DNA from: Patescibacteria group bacterium
GTDB taxonomy: Bacteria; Patescibacteriota; Patescibacteriia; JACRDY01
Direction of reading: 5' to 3'
Assembly (NCBI GenBank): GCA_041671565.1
Contig: JBAZBH010000005.1
Span: 3,083-67,082, forward strand
DNA length: 64,000 nt
Positions 5,632 through 56,955 of this stretch are shown here, piece by piece. The stretch's first letter is position 1. The number at the start of each line of letters is the position of its first letter. A program made the position numbers and the translations under genes. A model generated the notes under the pieces. That model made no database searches. It was given only the letters and a program-made list of their open reading frames with translations, and was not told the origin of the DNA.

Positions 5632-6810
5632 ATGGTTAGTAAAATATATTTTGATCATGCCGCGACCACGCCGGTCGATGGGGCGGTGTTAAAGGTGATG
5701 TTGCCGTACTTTGGCGACAAATTTGGCAATCCGTCTTCGCTCCATGGCTTTGGCCAAGAAGCGGCCGGCGGAACGGAAACGGCGCGAGAACAAGTGGCTC
5801 AGTTTCTCGGTTGCCAGCCGGCAGAAGTGATTTTTACTGCCGGCGCCAGCGAGGCGGACAATTTGGCGATTCAGGGAATAGTTCGGGGTAGTAAAGTTGA
5901 TTGCCCGCAGATTATTACTTCCACTATTGAACATCCGGCGATTTTGGAAGTCTGCCGAGCGCTCGCGAAAGAGGGGAAAGCGACGGTTGATTTCGTTAAA
6001 GTTAATCGTCTCGGTTTAGTTGAAGTAAAAGAAGTGGAAAAATTAATCACCGACAAAACGGTTTTAGTTTCTATTATGTACGCCAATAACGAGATTGGCA
6101 CGATTCAGCCGATCGCTGAAATTGGCAAATTAATTAAGCAATTAAATTTAAAACGGCAGAATAAGATTTATTTTCATACTGACGCGGTACAAGCGGTTAA
6201 TTATCTAAATTGCCGAGTTGATGAGCTTGGTGTAGATATGTTGTCCTTGTCTGGTCACAAGATTTATGGCCCCAAAGGTGTCGGGGTTTTATTTGTCCGG
6301 GCGAAAACGCTGATTAAACCGATCCAATTTGGCGGGCATCAAGAATATGGTTTGCGGCCGGGGACTGAGAATTCGGCGGCAATTGTCGGTTTGGGCAAGG
6401 CGATTGAACTGGTTAATAGCGCCAAGCGGTCAGCGGAGAATAAAAAAATTAAAAAAATGAGGGACGAACTACTCGCCGGCATTTTAAAAAATATTCCAGA
6501 CGCTAAACTGAACGGCGACCCGGTTAAACGGTTGCCGAATAACTTAAATATTAGTTTTAAAAATATTGAAGGTGAAAGCGCGATGCTGATGCTTGATCTA
6601 GCAGGTATCGCGGTTAGCACCGGCTCGGCCTGCGCTTCCGGCTCCTTAGAGCCGTCGCATGTTTTGCTCGCTTTGGGGCTGAAACATTTGGACGCGCATG
6701 GCAGTTTGCGGATTTCATTAGGTAAAGGCAATACGGCGACAGAAGTTAAAAAGCTAGTCGCCGTGTTGCCGGGGATTATAAAAAAACTTCGGCAGATAGC
6801 GCCTAAATGA
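5632..6810 (+). CDS. iscS: cysteine desulfurase (IscS/NifS family, PLP-dependent)
   Basis: IYFDHAATTP N-terminus, SLSGHKIYGPKG PLP-lysine region, GSACASGSLEPSHVLLALG active-site Cys loop. Confidence 0.9.
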   Translation: MVSKIYFDHAATTPVDGAVLKVMLPYFGDKFGNPSSLHGFGQEAAGGTETAREQVAQFLGCQPAEVIFTAGASEADNLAIQGIVRGSKVDCPQIITSTIEHPAILEVCRALAKEGKATVDFVKVNRLGLVEVKEVEKLITDKTVLVSIMYANNEIGTIQPIAEIGKLIKQLNLKRQNKIYFHTDAVQAVNYLNCRVDELGVDMLSLSGHKIYGPKGVGVLFVRAKTLIKPIQFGGHQEYGLRPGTENSAAIVGLGKAIELVNSAKRSAENKKIKKMRDELLAGILKNIPDAKLNGDPVKRLPNNLNISFKNIEGESAMLMLDLAGIAVSTGSACASGSLEPSHVLLALGLKHLDAHGSLRISLGKGNTATEVKKLVAVLPGIIKKLRQIAPK

Positions 6811-6898
6811 GTCCGAAGTCCACAGTCCGGAGTCCCGAGGAAGCTCAGAGTTAATTAGCTCAAAGCTCGCTCCGGACTCTGGACTTCGGACTCAGGAC
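6811..6898. repeat. intergenic word-palindrome (GTCCGGAGTC / GACTCCGGAC words); likely terminator after iscS
   Basis: gtccgaagtccacagtccggagtcc ... gctccggactctggacttcggactcaggact forms a long inverted repeat; the same word family recurs at 47900..48005. Confidence 0.6.
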
Positions 6899-7336: not shown

Positions 7337-7505
7337 GCTGCCAAACTACTTTTGCTGAAATTTGTCCTTTTCGGCTAAGGCTTCGTCAAGGTAGCGGTAA
7401 AATGATTTTCATCGTAGCGCGGCTATGACTCAAATCATTTTACCATCCTTTCCTCGCCTTAACCAAAAAGTCCTAAATTTCAGCTAAAAGCAGTTTGGTA
7501 GCCAT
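7337..7505. repeat. structured repeat element family A, copy 1 (conserved core GGCTAAGGCTTCGTCA..AAAATG..CGTAGC..CATTTT, flanked by a long inverted repeat)
   Basis: Core is shared with 32280..32450; outer arms gctgccaaactacttttgctgaaatttg / caaatttcagctaaaagcagtttggtagcc pair with each other but differ from the arms of copy 2 (compensatory change). Confidence 0.55.
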
Positions 7506-47899: not shown

Positions 47900-48005
47900 A
47901 GTCCACAGTCCAGAGTCCGGAGTGAGCTGTTAGCTAATAAATCCCAAGGGGATCCCTTTGGGACTCTGAGCTTTCTCTGAACTCCGGACTCGGGACTCTG
48001 GACTC
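47900..48005. repeat. intergenic word-palindrome (GTCCGGAGTC family, as at 6811..6898)
   Basis: gagtccacagtccagagtccggagtgagc...gaactccggactcgggactctggactc. Confidence 0.6.
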
Positions 48006-48061
48006 GTTAGCACTCTTGATCCCGCCAGTCGCTCCGCTCCTGGCGGGACAAGCACCTTCTT

Positions 48062-48088
48062 TTAGCACTCTTGACATAGGAGTGCTAA
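48062..48088 (+). promoter_or_regulatory. CIRCE operator (HrcA binding site) TTAGCACTC-N9-GAGTGCTAA, with TTGACA in the spacer and TATAAT at 48095..48100
   Basis: Exact match to the CIRCE consensus directly upstream of hrcA; a half-site TTAGCACTCTTGA also occurs at 48008. Confidence 0.9.
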
Positions 48089-48119
48089 CCGCGGTATAAT
48101 GCCTTTATAAAGCAAAAAT

Positions 48120-48821
48120 ATGGAAGACCGCACACAAAAATTGCTAAATACCATCGTCAGAGAATACATAAAAACCGCCCAGCCGGTGGGGTCCAAGCTT
48201 TTGGTGGATAAGTATAATTTGGATATTAGCTCGGCGACGGTGCGCAATGAAATGGCCTATCTGGAACAAGAGGGCTATATCACTCAGCCGCATACTTCCG
48301 CCGGCCGGGTGCCGACCGAAAAGGGCTATAAATTTTATATCAAGAATTCTCTGGAGCCGAAAGATATCAACAAGACTCAAGACAAAGCTTTTGAAAAAAT
48401 AGTTAAAAGCTCCAAGCAAGACCCCCGTGATTTAGTCAAAAGTCTGGCTAGGCAAATAGCGGAAAACTCCGGTCAGCTGATTTTTGTCAGTTTTGGCGAC
48501 GGCAATTTCTATTATACCGGCATGTCTAATATCTTTTCTCAGCCGGAGTTTGTCGAGCAAGAGATGATCTGCGATCTCAGCAAAATGATGGATCACTTTG
48601 ATGAGTCGATAAAAAAGTCATTTGATTCGACTGATAATGAGGTCAGAGTGATGGTCGGCTCGGCCAATCCTTTTAATAATCGGTGTTCGACGGTGGTGGT
48701 TAATTATGACTCCGGAGAAAACCAAGGCGTTATCGGTTTACTCGGTCCGATGAGAATGGATTATGAAGTTAATATGGCTCTGGTGGAGTATATTAGAGAT
48801 TTAATAAATAATCTGGAATAG
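48120..48821 (+). CDS. hrcA: heat-inducible transcription repressor HrcA (short form)
   Basis: N-terminal winged HTH LLNTIVREYIKTAQPVGSKLL...SSATVRNEMAYLEQEGYITQPHTSAGRVPT; downstream of CIRCE and upstream of grpE-dnaK. Confidence 0.8.
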   Translation: MEDRTQKLLNTIVREYIKTAQPVGSKLLVDKYNLDISSATVRNEMAYLEQEGYITQPHTSAGRVPTEKGYKFYIKNSLEPKDINKTQDKAFEKIVKSSKQDPRDLVKSLARQIAENSGQLIFVSFGDGNFYYTGMSNIFSQPEFVEQEMICDLSKMMDHFDESIKKSFDSTDNEVRVMVGSANPFNNRCSTVVVNYDSGENQGVIGLLGPMRMDYEVNMALVEYIRDLINNLE

Positions 48822-48852: not shown

Positions 48853-49374
48853 GTGTTTATGTCAAAGCAAAATATAGACGAGGATAAAAAGCCGGCTGAA
48901 GAAACTGAGGCAAACCAAGAACCGGAGTCAGCCGAAGAAATCGTAGAAAAATCGGTGGAGGATTATGAGGCCAAATGGCTGCGAGCGCTGGCGGACTATC
49001 AAAATCTTAAAAAACAAACGGTTAGCGATCGAGCCGAGTTTATAAAATACGCCAATGCCGGTTTGATTTTGGAGCTGCTACCCATACTCAATAACTTTAA
49101 AGTTGCCGCCGATCATGTCCCGCCGGAGCAACAAGAGGCGGATTGGGTTAAGGGCATATTTCATATTAAAACTCAATTGGCGGATTTATTGAAAAATATG
49201 GGGATAGAACAAATACCAACCGTGGGTGAGAAATTCGATCCGCAATTTCATGAAGCGGTTGGCCAAGAGGCGGTTGAAGGTAAAGCCGAAGGTGAAATCA
49301 TCAAAGAAGTCCGGGCCGGCTATACTCTCCATGGCAAGGTAATCGATCCGGCAAAAGTGATAGTTAATAAATAA
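48853..49374 (+). CDS. grpE: nucleotide exchange factor GrpE
   Basis: Coiled-coil then GrpE core (KYANAGLILELLPILNNF...KFDPQFHEAV...GYTLHGKVIDPAKV). Confidence 0.85.
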   Translation: MFMSKQNIDEDKKPAEETEANQEPESAEEIVEKSVEDYEAKWLRALADYQNLKKQTVSDRAEFIKYANAGLILELLPILNNFKVAADHVPPEQQEADWVKGIFHIKTQLADLLKNMGIEQIPTVGEKFDPQFHEAVGQEAVEGKAEGEIIKEVRAGYTLHGKVIDPAKVIVNK

Positions 49375-49395: not shown

Positions 49396-51330
<1,935 letters not shown>

Positions 51331-51339
51331 TTTGTTGGG

Positions 51340-51660
51340 GCGTCTCGATGCGGTATCGGGGCGCCCTTTAAGGGTTAAATTAACTCCCCACACCCCACCC
51401 CCGCCTGCAATGCTACGCATAGCGTTGCGGGCAGGCTGCCCCTCCCCTTGGCAGGGGAGGAGACGAGATAGTTTGTTCTCGGATTAAAGAGTATCTTTAG
51501 GTTAAAGTAAGTAGTTTAGTCAATTCTCAGGTAATAACTACTTTTAGAAATACAAGCTTATTTGAAGAAGAAAACTATAACGAGGAACTAGTTAACTAGT
51601 CTCTCCCCCTGCTAAGGGGGAGGTCAGGAGGGGGTGTGGGGAGTTTAATTTTGTAGGACG
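51340..51660. mobile_element. GC-rich element with about 27-bp terminal inverted repeats (AAATTAACTCCCCACACCCCACCCCC ... GGAGGGGGTGTGGGGAGTTTAATTT) enclosing internal hairpins; MITE-like or structured RNA
   Basis: Arms are near-perfect reverse complements about 220 nt apart; internal hairpins gcctgcaatgctacgcatagcgttgcgggc, ctgcccctccccttggcaggggaggag and ctctccccctgctaagggggag; GC-rich in an AT-rich context. Confidence 0.5.
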
Positions 51661-51692
51661 AAATTTAATTAATATTATTTGTTAATAAATTT

Positions 51693-51908
51693 ATGTCTAA
51701 TATAGAGGAGGTTAAAATTTTTTTAGAAAGTCACAAAAATAAATATTGCGATGATTGTTTGTCTGATATTCTAAAAATTAAACCACGCCAGCAAATAAAT
51801 CAAATTTGTAATAAGCTAAAAAAACAAGGAATTATTCAGCGAAAATTGGATAAATGTAGCGAGAGAGTGGTTTGCAAAAGAGAATATAAACTAATTAATT
51901 CCATATAA
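51693..51908 (+). CDS. hypothetical small Cys-containing protein
   Basis: 71 aa, CDDC...C...C pattern; AT-rich cassette between dnaK and dnaJ. Confidence 0.3.
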   Translation: MSNIEEVKIFLESHKNKYCDDCLSDILKIKPRQQINQICNKLKKQGIIQRKLDKCSERVVCKREYKLINSI

Positions 51909-51917
51909 AAATTTTCT

Positions 51918-52253
51918 ATGGACAGCCTAAAAAATGAGAAGTTTTCTGAGATAGATAATAAATACAAGGATGATCAACCAGCAGCTGATTTTTTTAAGGC
52001 AAATTGGATTTTTAGTAGGGGCTCTTATTATGCTAAACAAGGTCAGACCCGTGAAGCTATAAATGATTTTGAGGAGGCAATTAAAATAAAAAACGATTTT
52101 TTACCAGCATATTATAGTCTTTCTTTTGCATATATGGAAATAGGAGAAGAGAATAAGGCAGCTAAAATTTTTAGTAAATGTCCCGATGTAATGAAATCGG
52201 GAAGCAATAAAATAATAGCAAGAAGAGAAGATTTTTGGAAACATGTAAAATAA
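51918..52253 (+). CDS. hypothetical TPR-like repeat protein
   Basis: Helical repeats (AKQGQTREAINDFEEAIKIKNDFLPAYYSLSFAYMEIGEENKAAKIF) typical of TPR. Confidence 0.35.
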   Translation: MDSLKNEKFSEIDNKYKDDQPAADFFKANWIFSRGSYYAKQGQTREAINDFEEAIKIKNDFLPAYYSLSFAYMEIGEENKAAKIFSKCPDVMKSGSNKIIARREDFWKHVK

Positions 52254-52266
52254 TAAACTAATTTTT

Positions 52267-52560
52267 ATGACAAACCAACCAAATCAACCCACCGAAATTA
52301 AACTCGCCGACAATATTCCCGGCGCGGAGTACGCTAATTTTATGCAAGTCAGCCACACCAAAGAGGAGTTTCTCTTGATGTTTGCCAATATTGCTGGACT
52401 AAGTGGCCGGGTTATTGGTAAAATCATTACCAGCCCGGGGCACCTGAAGCGAATTATCAAAGCGCTGGAAGAAAATGTTAAGATGTATGAGTCCAAGTTC
52501 GGCGAGATTAAAGAAGCCGAAGCGCCGACGGGCAAAGAGATCGGCTTTTCTGACAAATAA
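52267..52560 (+). CDS. hypothetical protein (DUF3467-like)
   Basis: YANFMQVSHTKEEFLLMF resembles the DUF3467 core; weak. Confidence 0.3.
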   Translation: MTNQPNQPTEIKLADNIPGAEYANFMQVSHTKEEFLLMFANIAGLSGRVIGKIITSPGHLKRIIKALEENVKMYESKFGEIKEAEAPTGKEIGFSDK

Positions 52561-52617
52561 GAAGTCGTGCGAAATACCAGTTGCTTTGATATTTTTTTGT
52601 AAACCAATATTAAAATT

Positions 52618-53082
52618 ATGGATGAAATAATTGAAATAGCCATCAATGAGTTAAATAATTATTTAAAAGAATCAAATTGGTATGGCAGAGAAAATGAAGT
52701 GGTAAATCTATTTGCTCATTTATTTTTATCAAAATATGTAGGAAGAAATAATTTTACTTCTATATCACAAATTGGGATTGAGGTTGCCGTAAAGCAGCTA
52801 CCCTCATTAAGTGGGAAAAAACTTGTCAGAAAAGATTTGGTTATCTGGGGGCAAGAACGCCAAACAGTGTGGGATAATAATCACGAATCAGTCAACGATC
52901 CAATAGCGGTTTTAGAATGGAAAGTAAATTCTATATCTAAGTGTGATGGCGACATTGAATGGTTAAAAAAATTTACAAAAAGCTACCCAAAAGTAATAGG
53001 ATATAGTATTTGTGCCTTTATTAATAATAAAAGAGGCGTAAGTTTTAAAAAAATAAAAAATGGCGAAATAGTTACCGGCTAA
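52618..53082 (+). CDS. hypothetical protein with possible PD-(D/E)xK nuclease-like motif
   Basis: KDLVIWGQ...(about 20 aa)...PIAVLEWKVN gives a D...E.K spacing like restriction-endonuclease-fold proteins; tentative. Confidence 0.3.
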   Translation: MDEIIEIAINELNNYLKESNWYGRENEVVNLFAHLFLSKYVGRNNFTSISQIGIEVAVKQLPSLSGKKLVRKDLVIWGQERQTVWDNNHESVNDPIAVLEWKVNSISKCDGDIEWLKKFTKSYPKVIGYSICAFINNKRGVSFKKIKNGEIVTG

Positions 53083-53101
53083 TAAATGTTTAACCAATAA
53101 T

Positions 53102-53536
53102 ATGATAGTTGCTTGCGCTTATTGCGGCAGAGAAATTTATCAAACCGCCGACACTCAAACTGGGGTGTCACATGGCGCTTGTTCGGTTTGTGGCGAGATA
53201 GAAAAGGCTAAGGTTAGTAAGGAAGATATTAAGGGCAGTAATTTTATGTCTATAATTTTAGGTCGCGCCAGAGAATACATTTTTTCTAAAACCAATGAGT
53301 CGGAGAAAGACGGTCTTTTGAAGCTTTATCGAGAAGATATGTCGAGCTTAGTTGAACCTCAAGGCGAGGTGACTTATTTTAGAACGGAGAAAAAAAGATT
53401 GGCTGATGCTCAAGAGGCGCAAAAGACAGCTAACGATATCGTTGCCAGAACCAAGGCGGAAATAGCGAAAGAAAAAGCCGAAGAAACCGCTGAATCGGCG
53501 ACGCCGCCGGTTGATCCGGGCATTAAAATGAAATAA
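53102..53536 (+). CDS. hypothetical zinc-ribbon plus coiled-coil protein
   Basis: CAYCGREI...CSVCGEI N-terminal zinc ribbon; C-terminal charged helix. Confidence 0.3.
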   Translation: MIVACAYCGREIYQTADTQTGVSHGACSVCGEIEKAKVSKEDIKGSNFMSIILGRAREYIFSKTNESEKDGLLKLYREDMSSLVEPQGEVTYFRTEKKRLADAQEAQKTANDIVARTKAEIAKEKAEETAESATPPVDPGIKMK

Positions 53537-53538
53537 AC

Positions 53539-54633
53539 ATGGCAAAAGATTATTACGCTACCCTCGGCGTCGGGAAAGGCGCCAGCCAGGACGAGATTAA
53601 GAAGGCCTTCCGCGAGAAGGCCCATCTTTATCATCCGGATAAAAAAGGCGGCGATGAGGCGAAGTTTAAAGAAGCAAGCGAAGCCTACCAGACTCTCAGC
53701 AATCCGGAAAAACGGCAACAGTATGATCGTTTTGGTTCTGATGCCGGTTTTCAGGGTGGCGGCGCCGGTGGGTTCAATTGGCAAGATTTCGCGCGGCAAC
53801 AGGGCGGGTTTTCTTCTGGCGGCGCGGATTTCAACGGCGGTTTCGGCGATATTTTTGGTGATTTGGGCGAGATGTTTGGTTTTGGTGGCGGCCGGTCAGG
53901 CGGCCGGCGCGGGCCGCAGCGCGGCGAAGACATTCAGGCTGAGTTGGCAGTGGATTTTCTAGAAAGTGTTTTTGGCGCCGAGAAAACCGTGGAACTCCAA
54001 AAAACCATTGTCTGCGAGCATTGCCTTGGCAATGGCGCGGAGCCGGGCAGTAAAATCAATACCTGCTCAACTTGCGGCGGCTCGGGTCAGGTGGAGCAAG
54101 TCCAGCGGACGATACTTGGCAATATGCGGGTGGCGTCAGTTTGCCCGACGTGTAATGGCGAAGGCAAGAAAGCGGAAAAGCCCTGCAGTCGTTGCCGCGG
54201 CAAGGGCGTTTATTCCGACCGGCAAGCAATCAAGATTAAAATCCCGGCGGGTATTGCCAACGGCCAGAGCATTCGGCTCAGTGGCCAGGGCGAAGCTGGG
54301 GAGCGCGGCGCCGGCGCGGGCGACTTGTATATCAGTGTTAAAGTTAAAGCCGATCCGCGGTTCAAGCGGCAGGGCGATAATATCCTAACCACGGAGAAAA
54401 TCAGTTTTCGCCAGGCGGCCTTGGGCGACAAGATTGAAGTGGCGACGGTCCACGGTTCAGTGGTTTTGAAAATTCCCGATGGCACCCAGACCGGCAAAGT
54501 TTTCAAACTCAGCGGCAAAGGCGTGCCGCATTTGGGCGGCGGGGGAACGGGCGACCATTTGGTGGAGGTGGTGGTGGTGACACCGACGCGGCTAAGCCGG
54601 AGCCAGAAGAAGTTGATCGAAGGGCTGGAATAA
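53539..54633 (+). CDS. dnaJ: molecular chaperone DnaJ
   Basis: J-domain DYYATLGV...HPDK, Gly/Phe-rich region, four CxxCxGxG zinc-finger repeats, C-terminal domains. Confidence 0.9.
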   Translation: MAKDYYATLGVGKGASQDEIKKAFREKAHLYHPDKKGGDEAKFKEASEAYQTLSNPEKRQQYDRFGSDAGFQGGGAGGFNWQDFARQQGGFSSGGADFNGGFGDIFGDLGEMFGFGGGRSGGRRGPQRGEDIQAELAVDFLESVFGAEKTVELQKTIVCEHCLGNGAEPGSKINTCSTCGGSGQVEQVQRTILGNMRVASVCPTCNGEGKKAEKPCSRCRGKGVYSDRQAIKIKIPAGIANGQSIRLSGQGEAGERGAGAGDLYISVKVKADPRFKRQGDNILTTEKISFRQAALGDKIEVATVHGSVVLKIPDGTQTGKVFKLSGKGVPHLGGGGTGDHLVEVVVVTPTRLSRSQKKLIEGLE

Positions 54634-56640: not shown

Positions 56641-56711
56641 TGGGAGATCGTCTAATGGTAGGACAACGGATTCTGGCTCCGTTTATCCAGGTTCGAATCC
56701 TGGTCTCCCAG
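56641..56711 (+). tRNA. tRNA-Gln (anticodon CTG)
   Basis: TGGGAGA acceptor, TCTAATGGTAGGA D-arm, anticodon stem-loop ACGGA-TTCTGGC-TCCGT, GGTTCGAATCC T-arm; body nearly identical to tRNA-Gln(TTG) at 24192. Confidence 0.8.
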
Positions 56712-56774
56712 TTTTAAAAATTGAGGTTCGCCCGCTCGTCGCGAAGCGCGAGCGGGTCCGCTCACGGCTTTGCC

Positions 56775-56791
56775 GATGAGCGGAAATCCTG
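56775..56791 (+). repeat. 17-nt direct duplicate of the tRNA-Gln 3' end (AATCCTGGTCTCCCAG) 64 nt downstream of the tRNA
   Basis: Exact repeat of 56695..56711; the intervening 63 nt form two perfect hairpins (cccgctcgtcgcgaagcgcgagcggg; tccgctcacggctttgccgatgagcgga). Confidence 0.6.
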
Positions 56792-56955
56792 GTCTCCCAG
56801 CCAAGAAATCAGTTTAAACAGCTGATTTTTTGTTAATAAAAAACAAGGCCGGGCGGCGACAGTTTGGTTAACGGCTGAGGCAAATGGTTGGCTGGTTCTA
56901 GGGCGGTTTTTATGATAGAATAAAAACGCTTGCCAAATAGTTAAATCTGGAATTT

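Follow-up and report, generated by a model that had tools for sequence, protein, structure and literature searches.

A 64,000-nucleotide stretch of a Patescibacteria genome (contig JBAZBH010000005.1 of assembly GCA_041671565.1, hereafter the window) carries a palindromic element in the spacer behind dnaK, between this gene and the small open reading frames (ORFs) that precede dnaJ. We read this element, with a probability of about 0.6, as a non-autonomous, non-coding, hairpin-forming repeat of the type of MITEs (miniature inverted-repeat transposable elements) or of REPINs, which are doublets of repetitive extragenic palindromes (REPs) that form hairpins and are mobilised by RAYT/TnpA-REP. Nested within it is a smaller hairpin of a family present in several phyla. 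The element has the structure of a long imperfect palindrome, it recurs with sharp ends in a second gene context, the second copy preserves the empty site of the nested hairpin, and the family of the inner hairpin is broadly spread. Most likely, it is selfish repeat DNA, neither an RNA with a regulatory function nor a gene island's edge. Small, streamlined genomes of the candidate phyla radiation (CPR) are usually described as repeat-poor, and the locus shows layered, nested palindromic elements in a CPR genome.

The near-perfect inverted repeats noticed in a preliminary description of this stretch are real, if displaced by ~15 nt from the positions first quoted. The arms at 51377-51396 and 51631-51650 are complementary at 18 of 20 positions (90%), include perfect 15-bp cores (AACTCCCCACACCCC, 51382-51396, and GGGGTGTGGGGAGTT, 51631-51645) and are 234 nt apart, not ~220 nt as had been estimated; such a pair appeared in none of 100 dinucleotide shuffles of the window. 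A second inverted pair (51393-51407 and 51625-51639) continues the outer arms, and further inward lies a 43-nt inverted match (51436-51478 and 51585-51627, 74%) that had been missed. Because complementarity extends inward, the true arms measure ~66 nt each and are imperfect, longer than the ~27-bp terminal inverted repeats (TIRs) originally proposed, and the left one is broken by a 36-nt insertion. The two parts of the left arm read AACTCCCCACACCCCACC and CTGCCCCTCCCCTTGGCAGGGGAGGAGACGAGATAGTTTGTTC, and the right arm, as reverse complement, reads AAACTCCCCACACCCCCTCCTGACCTCCCCCTTAGCAGGGGGAGAGACTAGTTAACTAGTTC. Weak AT-rich complementarity continues beyond the cores, out to 51377 and 51651. All three GC hairpins said to be enclosed by the repeats were found, at 51403-51432 (13-bp stem), 51441-51460 and 51603-51622, each ~66-nt arm holding a 20-nt GC hairpin of its own. 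GC content is 0.48 over the whole element, against 0.31 in an interval spanning its centre and right flank.

When folded, the region reaches -125.8 kcal/mol on the plus strand (z -7.9) and -117.9 kcal/mol on the minus strand (z -8.8), values equalled by none of 200 shuffles, and the terminal repeats do pair with one another in the minimum-free-energy fold (Table 1). In both copies known to us (see below) the sense strand, co-directional with the flanking genes, folds better by ~8 kcal/mol. No ORF of 20 or more amino acids is confined to the element, and a protein search with a spurious 51-aa ORF overlying it gave no candidate; on the plus strand, no promoter-like site was found within the AT-rich centre. 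An Rfam check detected no known RNA on the element: Rfam 15 gave no match there in a region scan at E values up to 10, the best match within 50800-52300 (17.7 bits against a threshold of 37.6) falls inside dnaK, and a scan of the whole window at gathering thresholds returned five tRNAs only.

A search for other copies by BLASTN and pattern scans recovered one true second copy, on the metagenome contig Ga0172379_10052161 (positions 892-1138, in opposite orientation in the record). In the following, the loci used for comparison bear numbers with an L, and this one is L158. The two copies are 83% identical over 248 nt (BLAST, E 8e-64), and nhmmer and direct alignment also show colinearity over the full length, from AACTCCCC to GGGGAGTT, with nearly identical arms and a more diverged centre. 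Homology stops at the termini of the TIRs, and the flanks are unrelated. Instead of dnaK, the L158 copy has as neighbours a CCA-adding-enzyme-like gene and a secreted low-complexity ORF that is followed by a terminator-like hairpin; the copy lies ~45 nt past this hairpin, and the next gene starts ~95 nt away. Given this unrelated context and the sharp ends, the unit must have been copied or transferred and is not a spacer specific to dnaK, and the end of homology at the tips of the TIRs marks it as a palindromic element that is dispersed and non-coding. Since L158 has the AT-rich centre too, this centre is an intrinsic part.

The same comparison dates the inner hairpin relative to the rest. 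L158 reads CCCCACC directly followed by CTGCCCC, where the window has CCCGCCTGCAATGCTACGCATAGCGTTGCGGGCAGG between these two motifs. Exactly 36 nt are thus absent from L158, so that the hairpin within the left arm is a later nested insertion, made without duplication. As DNA, it folds at about -12.6 to -12.8 kcal/mol. A relative whose DnaK is 82% identical (L004) carries GCAATGCAAAGCATAGC in its own spacer downstream of dnaK, and a scan of GTDB genomes with the core GCCYGCAATGCNNNGCATAGCNTTG, a pattern that fixes 21 of the 36 positions, matched at least 120 loci. Among the matches listed, about half belong, by record title, to Patescibacteria of many classes and much of the rest to Verrucomicrobiota, Lentisphaerae or Kiritimatiellia, with about a dozen Gammaproteobacteria and two Bdellovibrionales. 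Genomes may hold several copies (at least six contigs matched in one of them), and the hairpin had no match in 2.9 million viral contigs.

The family unit is exactly 36 nt long (CCTGCCCGCAATGCTACGCATAGCGTTGCAGGCGGG), and 69 of the 122 copies among the matches listed are identical. In one variant (...GCAAAGCATAGCTTTGG...), a C-G pair of the inner stem has become A-T by a double change, and in the window copy, as read from the sequence, the two 9-nt stem arms are exchanged relative to the family consensus, as if the loop had been inverted. In the flanks, the sole preference is a weak one (A at -1, C at +1), and a duplication is lacking. Of these 122 copies, 43 (35%) fall inside open frames of at least 150 codons, and 25 of the 43 read PARNATHSVAGG. 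In a methionyl-tRNA synthetase (MetRS) of Saccharibacteria, the peptide encoded by the hairpin, 12 added codons, falls at a gap with respect to solved MetRS structures, and two Nomurabacteria/Paceibacterota genomes (L033 and L099) share a hairpin insertion in an orthologous gene. This 36-nt hairpin family is nearly invariant and common to phyla far apart; essential proteins tolerate its insertion, and its copies are linked to small GIY-YIG genes (below). Full-text literature searches with DNA and peptide strings of the elements returned no relevant match.

Some 36-nt hairpins are bracketed by direct repeats of 12 to 31 nt that derive from the start of the neighbouring gene or the end of a tRNA (L025, L103, L084, L094, L067 and L068). 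In L025 (~7390-7470, minus strand), the initial 31 nt of dnaK recur, in diverged form, as the bracketing repeat. The right-hand repeat directly adjoins the hairpin in several of these cases, and the variable length of the repeats is unlike the target duplications of classical transposases.

A search with phmmer, using a small GIY-YIG protein as query, identified 11 such genes in the 120 listed hairpin loci. The hairpin lies 8 to 27 nt upstream of the homology-inferred start in eight and 38 to 58 nt past the stop in two, which makes ten of 11 with a hairpin within 60 nt, where uniform placement in an 8-kb locus would by our estimate give a chance of ~4% for each. Single-domain GIY-YIG nucleases named Ssn cut single-stranded DNA (ssDNA) beside 20- to 50-nt hairpin repeats (NTS/SRM), which flank their own ssn gene and reach hundreds of copies, and many such enzyme/motif pairs are expected by the authors of that work (Chenal et al. 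2025, PMC11893778). A tentative and on balance doubtful proposal is that the 36-nt hairpin is the cognate single-strand recognition motif of an undescribed Ssn-like GIY-YIG clade. Hairpin and nuclease would then form a selfish unit that spreads between phyla (Patescibacteria, the Planctomycetes-Verrucomicrobia-Chlamydiae group and Gammaproteobacteria), inserts into tRNA genes, operators and other hairpins, with target duplications that vary from 13 to 32 nt, and leaves behind solitary 36-nt hairpins, some of which add 12 codons in frame to essential genes such as that for MetRS; the 228-bp element would be a REPIN-like doublet whose movement depends on an ssDNA enzyme of the same kind. If the Ssn link were true, it would add a new enzyme/motif pair and a concrete case in which to ask how hairpins of this sort spread and at what cost to the host.

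The arrangement in L004 (13540-13959) deserves a description of its own. Here, a related hairpin (CCCGCCCGCAACGC...GCGATGCGGGCGGG) and an 82-aa GIY-YIG gene stand between a truncated duplicate of the 5' half of a tRNA and the intact tRNA; the duplication comprises ~32 nt, made up of sequence upstream of the tRNA and of its 5' half, and the hairpin sits within the duplicated D-arm. It offers the clearest case of such a unit acting in the manner of a mobile element.

For the element behind dnaK, the order of events would be as follows. A basic unit of ~228 bp, with two imperfect ~66-nt inverted arms around an AT-rich centre of ~106 nt and one 20-nt GC hairpin per arm, would have inserted just downstream of the terminator hairpin of dnaK, and a 36-nt hairpin of the widely dispersed family later entered its left arm without target duplication. 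Both may be selfish and moved in trans by an enzyme encoded elsewhere, probably as folded ssDNA by analogy with REP/REPIN-RAYT and NTS/SRM-Ssn. Three features hint at such an ssDNA-hairpin mechanism: target duplications are lacking, the palindromes are imperfect, and the inner hairpin has its GIY-YIG/Ssn association. Read-through from dnaK would produce an RNA with an imperfect hairpin of ~100 bp, which could act as a processing site or as a decay barrier before the downstream cistrons; a side effect of this kind on the operon is plausible.

Several results weigh against the classification as a MITE/REPIN-type repeat. In the 64-kb window, a pattern search allowing three mismatches and blastn-short found no other copy, only chance 10- to 13-mers, and the other 160 loci (~1 Mb) held no further full copy, which leaves two full copies in all. 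The scans of large collections required exact 12- to 13-mers: a search for the TIR pair at a gap of 220 to 250 nt had no match in GTDB genomes or in viral contigs, a range that would miss copies without the inner hairpin, and at a gap of 171 to 231 nt the metagenomes yielded 30 loci, namely L158 and 29 members of an unrelated freshwater repeat family that shares only a 12-mer. Viral scans gave no match for the arm hairpin and three chance matches for a single arm, and blastn against phages and plasmids found nothing but a 33-nt arm module in one plasmid. Outside the TIRs, no identical direct repeat abuts both ends in either copy, and no target-site duplication is convincing (flanks TTAAATT and TAATTTT in the window, AAAAAA and ATTTAACC in L158). 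A 10-nt pair (ATAATTTGTT/ATTATTTGTT) considered as a duplication lies outside the homology boundaries and is AT-rich, and was taken as chance. The window encodes no transposase, RAYT or GIY-YIG gene. As to the inner hairpin, the published SRM motif HGTCWYN(0-2)YYVSBRHN(0-5)WNVSBRGN(0-2)RNCYNB had no match in it, in the window or in the loci of relatives, and the hairpin-adjacent GIY-YIG proteins could not be placed in the Ssn clade (CDD cd10448), NCBIfam being uninformative and UPF0213 proteins (E 1.5e-5) being all that a sequence comparison with the PDB offers as relatives; the likeness to Ssn systems is therefore functional and architectural and does not establish membership. Finally, both copies lie just past a terminator-like hairpin and fold better on the sense strand, which leaves room for a role at the RNA level; these two features are shared by descent and so do not count as independent evidence.

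The preliminary description had left a structured non-coding RNA open, and an element of the heat-shock operon that acts between dnaK and DUF3467/dnaJ as a functional RNA or in cis on the mRNA (a stabiliser, an RNase III site, a read-through attenuator or a thermosensor) would indeed account for the very stable fold, for the better folding of the sense strand, for the co-directionality of both copies with their flanking genes just downstream of a terminator-like hairpin, and for the long structured spacers that follow dnaK in relatives too. Nevertheless, we consider it unlikely: no Rfam family was recognized even at E values up to 10, the second copy resides in a non-chaperone context, the spacers of the relatives are unrelated in sequence (L006 is nearly devoid of one), and one arm tolerates a 36-nt insertion. 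Moreover, of the 99 pairs of the predicted fold, 66 are unchanged between the two copies and 15 fall in gaps, while the one-sided changes break 11 pairs and keep five, and of two double changes one keeps the pair, the only compensatory case, and the other breaks it. Differences that mostly destroy predicted pairs argue against selection on the RNA fold, with two sequences being few for such a comparison. A local mosaic that grew by repeated insertion of small hairpins and inverted duplication, in the manner of bacterial interspersed mosaic elements (BIMEs) or Neisseria intergenic mosaic elements (NIMEs), and never moved as a whole, also seems improbable. The 36-nt hairpin was demonstrably inserted by itself, relatives carry different mosaics at the same site, and the 33-nt module of the right arm (CTCCCCCTGCNAAGGGGGAGGTCRGGAGGGGGT) occurs alone in L077 (Paceibacterota; 6610-6660) and L017 (125-185) and, with an inverted partner ~60 nt away, in a spacer of the Enterobacteriaceae plasmid CP045666.1 (L164, that is 196240-197072; locus positions 401-433 and 495-525), so that the arm hairpins may also belong to a widely dispersed family of modules. 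Against an origin in place stands L158, colinear over the entire 228-bp unit including the AT-rich centre, with sharp ends and in an unrelated context, which means that copying or transfer of the complete unit happened at least once.

The suggestion that the element is the end of an integrative element (an att site or terminal repeat), which would have brought the AT-rich genes between dnaK and dnaJ, draws on the sharp fall in GC that the element adjoins (from ~0.5 to 0.25-0.33) and on two ORFs, a winged helix-turn-helix (wHTH)-like one of 71 aa and a TPR one of 111 aa, that lack counterparts in relatives. We judge it very improbable. Both inverted arms lie within 274 bp with no matching repeat beyond the AT-rich genes, the L158 copy stands without the cassette and with the next gene ~95 nt away, and the five ORFs encode no integrase or transposase; furthermore, the AT-rich DNA forms two blocks around a DUF3467 gene 62 to 90% identical to copies at the same position in relatives, and the AT-rich centre belongs to the element itself, being in L158 too. 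Chance or an assembly artefact has a negligible probability. Nothing beyond the low-complexity C/G runs in the arms speaks for it, and against it are the shuffling results, the identical sequence in an independent assembly (L001) and the diverged copy in a third data set (L158). Two readings of this locus are thereby set aside: that it is a regulatory RNA belonging to the heat-shock operon, and that it bounds an island.

Among the three interpretations offered at the outset, that of a MITE is the best supported, and a REPIN-like hairpin doublet fits equally well. In favor of the former are the TIRs with 15-bp perfect cores and ~66-nt imperfect arms, the small size (264 bp), the lack of an ORF and the dispersal of two colinear copies with the same termini in unrelated contexts with sharp ends; since neither a target-site duplication nor a cognate transposase nor any additional copy was found, strict MITE membership is unproven. 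Long-TIR MITEs (Correia/NEMIS, ERIC/IRU, RUP and Nezha) resemble the element in their 100 to 300 bp, TIRs, lack of ORFs, intergenic placement within operons and a long RNA hairpin predicted upon co-transcription, and for Correia and ERIC elements an influence on mRNA processing is established. The element differs from them in having no target-site duplication (TA in Correia), no related autonomous insertion sequence that we could find and no sequence similarity. With REPINs and BIMEs, it shares two short palindromes inverted around a spacer (the 20-nt GC hairpins of the arms) that fold as one long imperfect hairpin, as well as a non-coding, intergenic location near terminators, no target duplication and the occurrence of single hairpin units alone. 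However, its ~66-nt arms and 106-nt spacer are larger than those of typical REPINs, the hairpin feet carry, on reading the sequence, no GTAG/CGTC tag, no ORF resembling a Y1 transposase or RAYT is found among the neighbours, and high copy number defines REPINs, while this element is known from two copies, only one of them in 64 kb.

The 36-nt hairpin, for its part, resembles the NTS/SRM repeats of Ssn systems (with which the dRS3/NIME mosaics of Neisseria are grouped here as a near known system), being an imperfect palindrome in the 20- to 50-nt range, with several copies per genome in several phyla and directly beside small GIY-YIG genes. In addition, the dnaK spacers of relatives hold hairpins of the type GTCATTCCGAGC...GAGGAATC that resemble the NTS stem (GTCATTCCC...GGGAATC). 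It departs from them in that it misses the SRM motif (HGTCWY...), the window contains no GIY-YIG gene, and 35% of the copies among the matches listed are within long open frames, versus 2% for NTS in N. meningitidis. Rickettsia palindromic elements (RPEs) are likewise palindromic repeats inserted in frame into genes and tolerated as extra peptide, as are the 12 codons in MetRS; they are 100 to 150 bp long and restricted to Rickettsia, in contrast to 36 nt and several phyla here, and there is no sequence similarity. Integron attC sites and cassette arrays were discarded, the ends AATTAAC and GTTTAAT misfitting the cores RYYYAAC ... GTTRRRY, the spacers between the five ORFs (2 to 57 nt) being free of palindromes and an integrase being absent; on reading, retrons, integron attC sites and CRISPR were also dismissed, with no reverse transcriptase, no intI and no regular repeat-spacer array.

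Table 1. The repeat element and the surrounding dnaK-dnaJ region, in gene order. Positions refer to the window unless a comparison locus is named
Feature	Position	Strand	Remarks
hrcA	48120-48821		
grpE	48853-49374		
dnaK	49396-51330		
Terminator-like hairpin of dnaK	51337-51369	+	GGGGCGTCTCGATGC...CGGGGCGCCC, then TTT; 14-bp stem, -23.1 kcal/mol
Whole palindromic element	51382-51645	+	264 bp, 228 bp without nested hairpin; AACTCCCCACACCCC to GGGGTGTGGGGAGTT
Left arm, outer part	51382-51399	+	TIR core and C-rich run; pairs with 51628-51645 in minimum-free-energy fold
Nested hairpin insertion	51400-51435	+	36 nt, CCCGCCTGCAATGCTACGCATAGCGTTGCGGGCAGG; boundary ambiguous by 1 nt
Left arm, inner part	51436-51478	+	GC hairpin CCTCCCCTTGGCAGGGGAGG at 51441-51460; nearly identical in L158
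AT-rich centre	51479-51584	+	~106 nt; least conserved part between the two copies (indels, substitutions)
Right arm	51585-51645	+	GC hairpin CTCCCCCTGCTAAGGGGGAG at 51603-51622, then G-rich tail and terminal core
Five small ORFs	51693-53536		
DUF3467 gene	52267-52560		In relatives: L002 8693-8983; L004 8286-8570; L006 8412-8705; L127 2613-2912; L128 3376-3669; L129 6654-6944
dnaJ	53539-54633		
dnaX			Follows dnaJ

The DnaK of the window is 100% identical to a protein listed as Patescibacteria DnaK by NCBI and JGI, and its nearest relatives are all Patescibacteria, with 74 to 83% identity. The element had been placed directly after dnaK, and it does follow this gene, with dnaK's own terminator-like hairpin in between; it starts 8 to 13 nt past this hairpin, which is outside the repeat and lies at the position immediately upstream of the insertion. 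A homologous hairpin (TTGTTGGGGCG...CGCCC) is located 3' of dnaK in L002. In relatives whose DnaK is 78 to 83% identical, the slot behind dnaK contains other, unrelated nested GC palindromes (L002, L004, L128 and L129; in L127 they come after DUF3467): hairpins of the GTCATTCCGAGC...GAGGAATC type in the spacers of L002 and L129, several hairpins in L004 and a long-range inverted repeat of ~190 nt in L128. In L006, dnaK is followed by hardly any spacer, and palindromes are absent from it. With palindromes that differ between relatives past the dnaK terminator, the site behaves as a hot spot for hairpin insertions.

Downstream, the AT-rich ORFs begin at 51693. They had been described as a five-gene cassette splitting dnaK from dnaJ, which holds only in part. 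The ORFs of 71, 111 and 154 aa (51693-52253 and 52618-53082; GC 0.25-0.34) have no counterpart in relatives and look like variable AT-rich additions; the first gives a weak wHTH match and has four cysteines, the second has TPR repeats and the third matches no family. The DUF3467 gene, on the other hand, is present between dnaK and dnaJ in all seven relatives examined (L002, L004, L006, L127, L128 and L129/L130), and the 144-aa ORF immediately 5' of dnaJ has weak counterparts at the same position. GC content rises up to 0.44 over DUF3467, flanked by two AT-rich blocks, and the three AT-rich ORFs are two separate insertions, one on each side. The cassette is therefore not a single unit, DUF3467 is a conserved member of the dnaK-dnaJ operon of this lineage, and none of the five ORFs between the element and dnaJ encodes an integrase or transposase, nor does any of the three variable ones resemble a recombinase. 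The operon picture is thus corrected on two counts, the conserved position of DUF3467 in the lineage and the spacer behind dnaK as a recurrent landing site for hairpin repeats. The window DUF3467 is 86 to 90% identical to the copies of four relatives and 62 to 69% to those of the other two. In the four closer relatives, it is more conserved than DnaK itself (78 to 83%). Its conservation between dnaK and dnaJ suggests that, in this lineage of Patescibacteria, the DnaK/DnaJ system has an uncharacterised partner.

Other hairpin repeats were seen at these loci. In the freshwater metagenome contigs L131-L157 and L159-L160, hairpin arrays (GGAGAGGGGTGTGGGGA-loop-TCTCCAC / GTGGGGAcacttcgttTCCCCACACCCC) recur at intervals of 200 to 250 nt, the sequence in between being variable, and have no relation to the window element save for the shared 12-mer. 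Long inverted repeats of AGTCCRG-type heptads (...AGTCCAGAGTCCGGAGT ... ACTCCGGACTCGGGACTCTGGACT...) occur in the window at 47900-48007 and 6806-6894 and in L158 at 485-570, there inside the CCA-enzyme ORF (...SPESRV...LDSGL...), and heptad runs flank several copies of the 36-nt hairpin (L017, L032, L050, L068 and L109). Upstream of hrcA, the CIRCE operator (TTAGCACTCTTGACATAGGAGTGCTAA, 48063-48089) is preceded by a half-copy (TTAGCACTCTTGA) and, before this, by a hairpin (TCCCGCCAGTCGCTCCGCTCCTGGCGGGA, 48020-48048); in the region 48008-48089, a hairpin has inserted, and the left half of the operator is duplicated over 13 nt. A tRNA of the window (56641-56711) is followed after ~19 nt by GC hairpins at 56731-56756 (CCCGCTCGTCGCGAAGCGCGAGCGGG) and 56757-56784 and then by a direct repeat of the tRNA 3' end (aatcctggtctcccag). 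This region (56641-56800) resembles what a small element with a hairpin would leave behind after inserting into tRNA genes, and the same 37-nt tRNA-adjacent hairpin is 100% identical in L158 (3450-3486), again by a duplicated tRNA 3' end.

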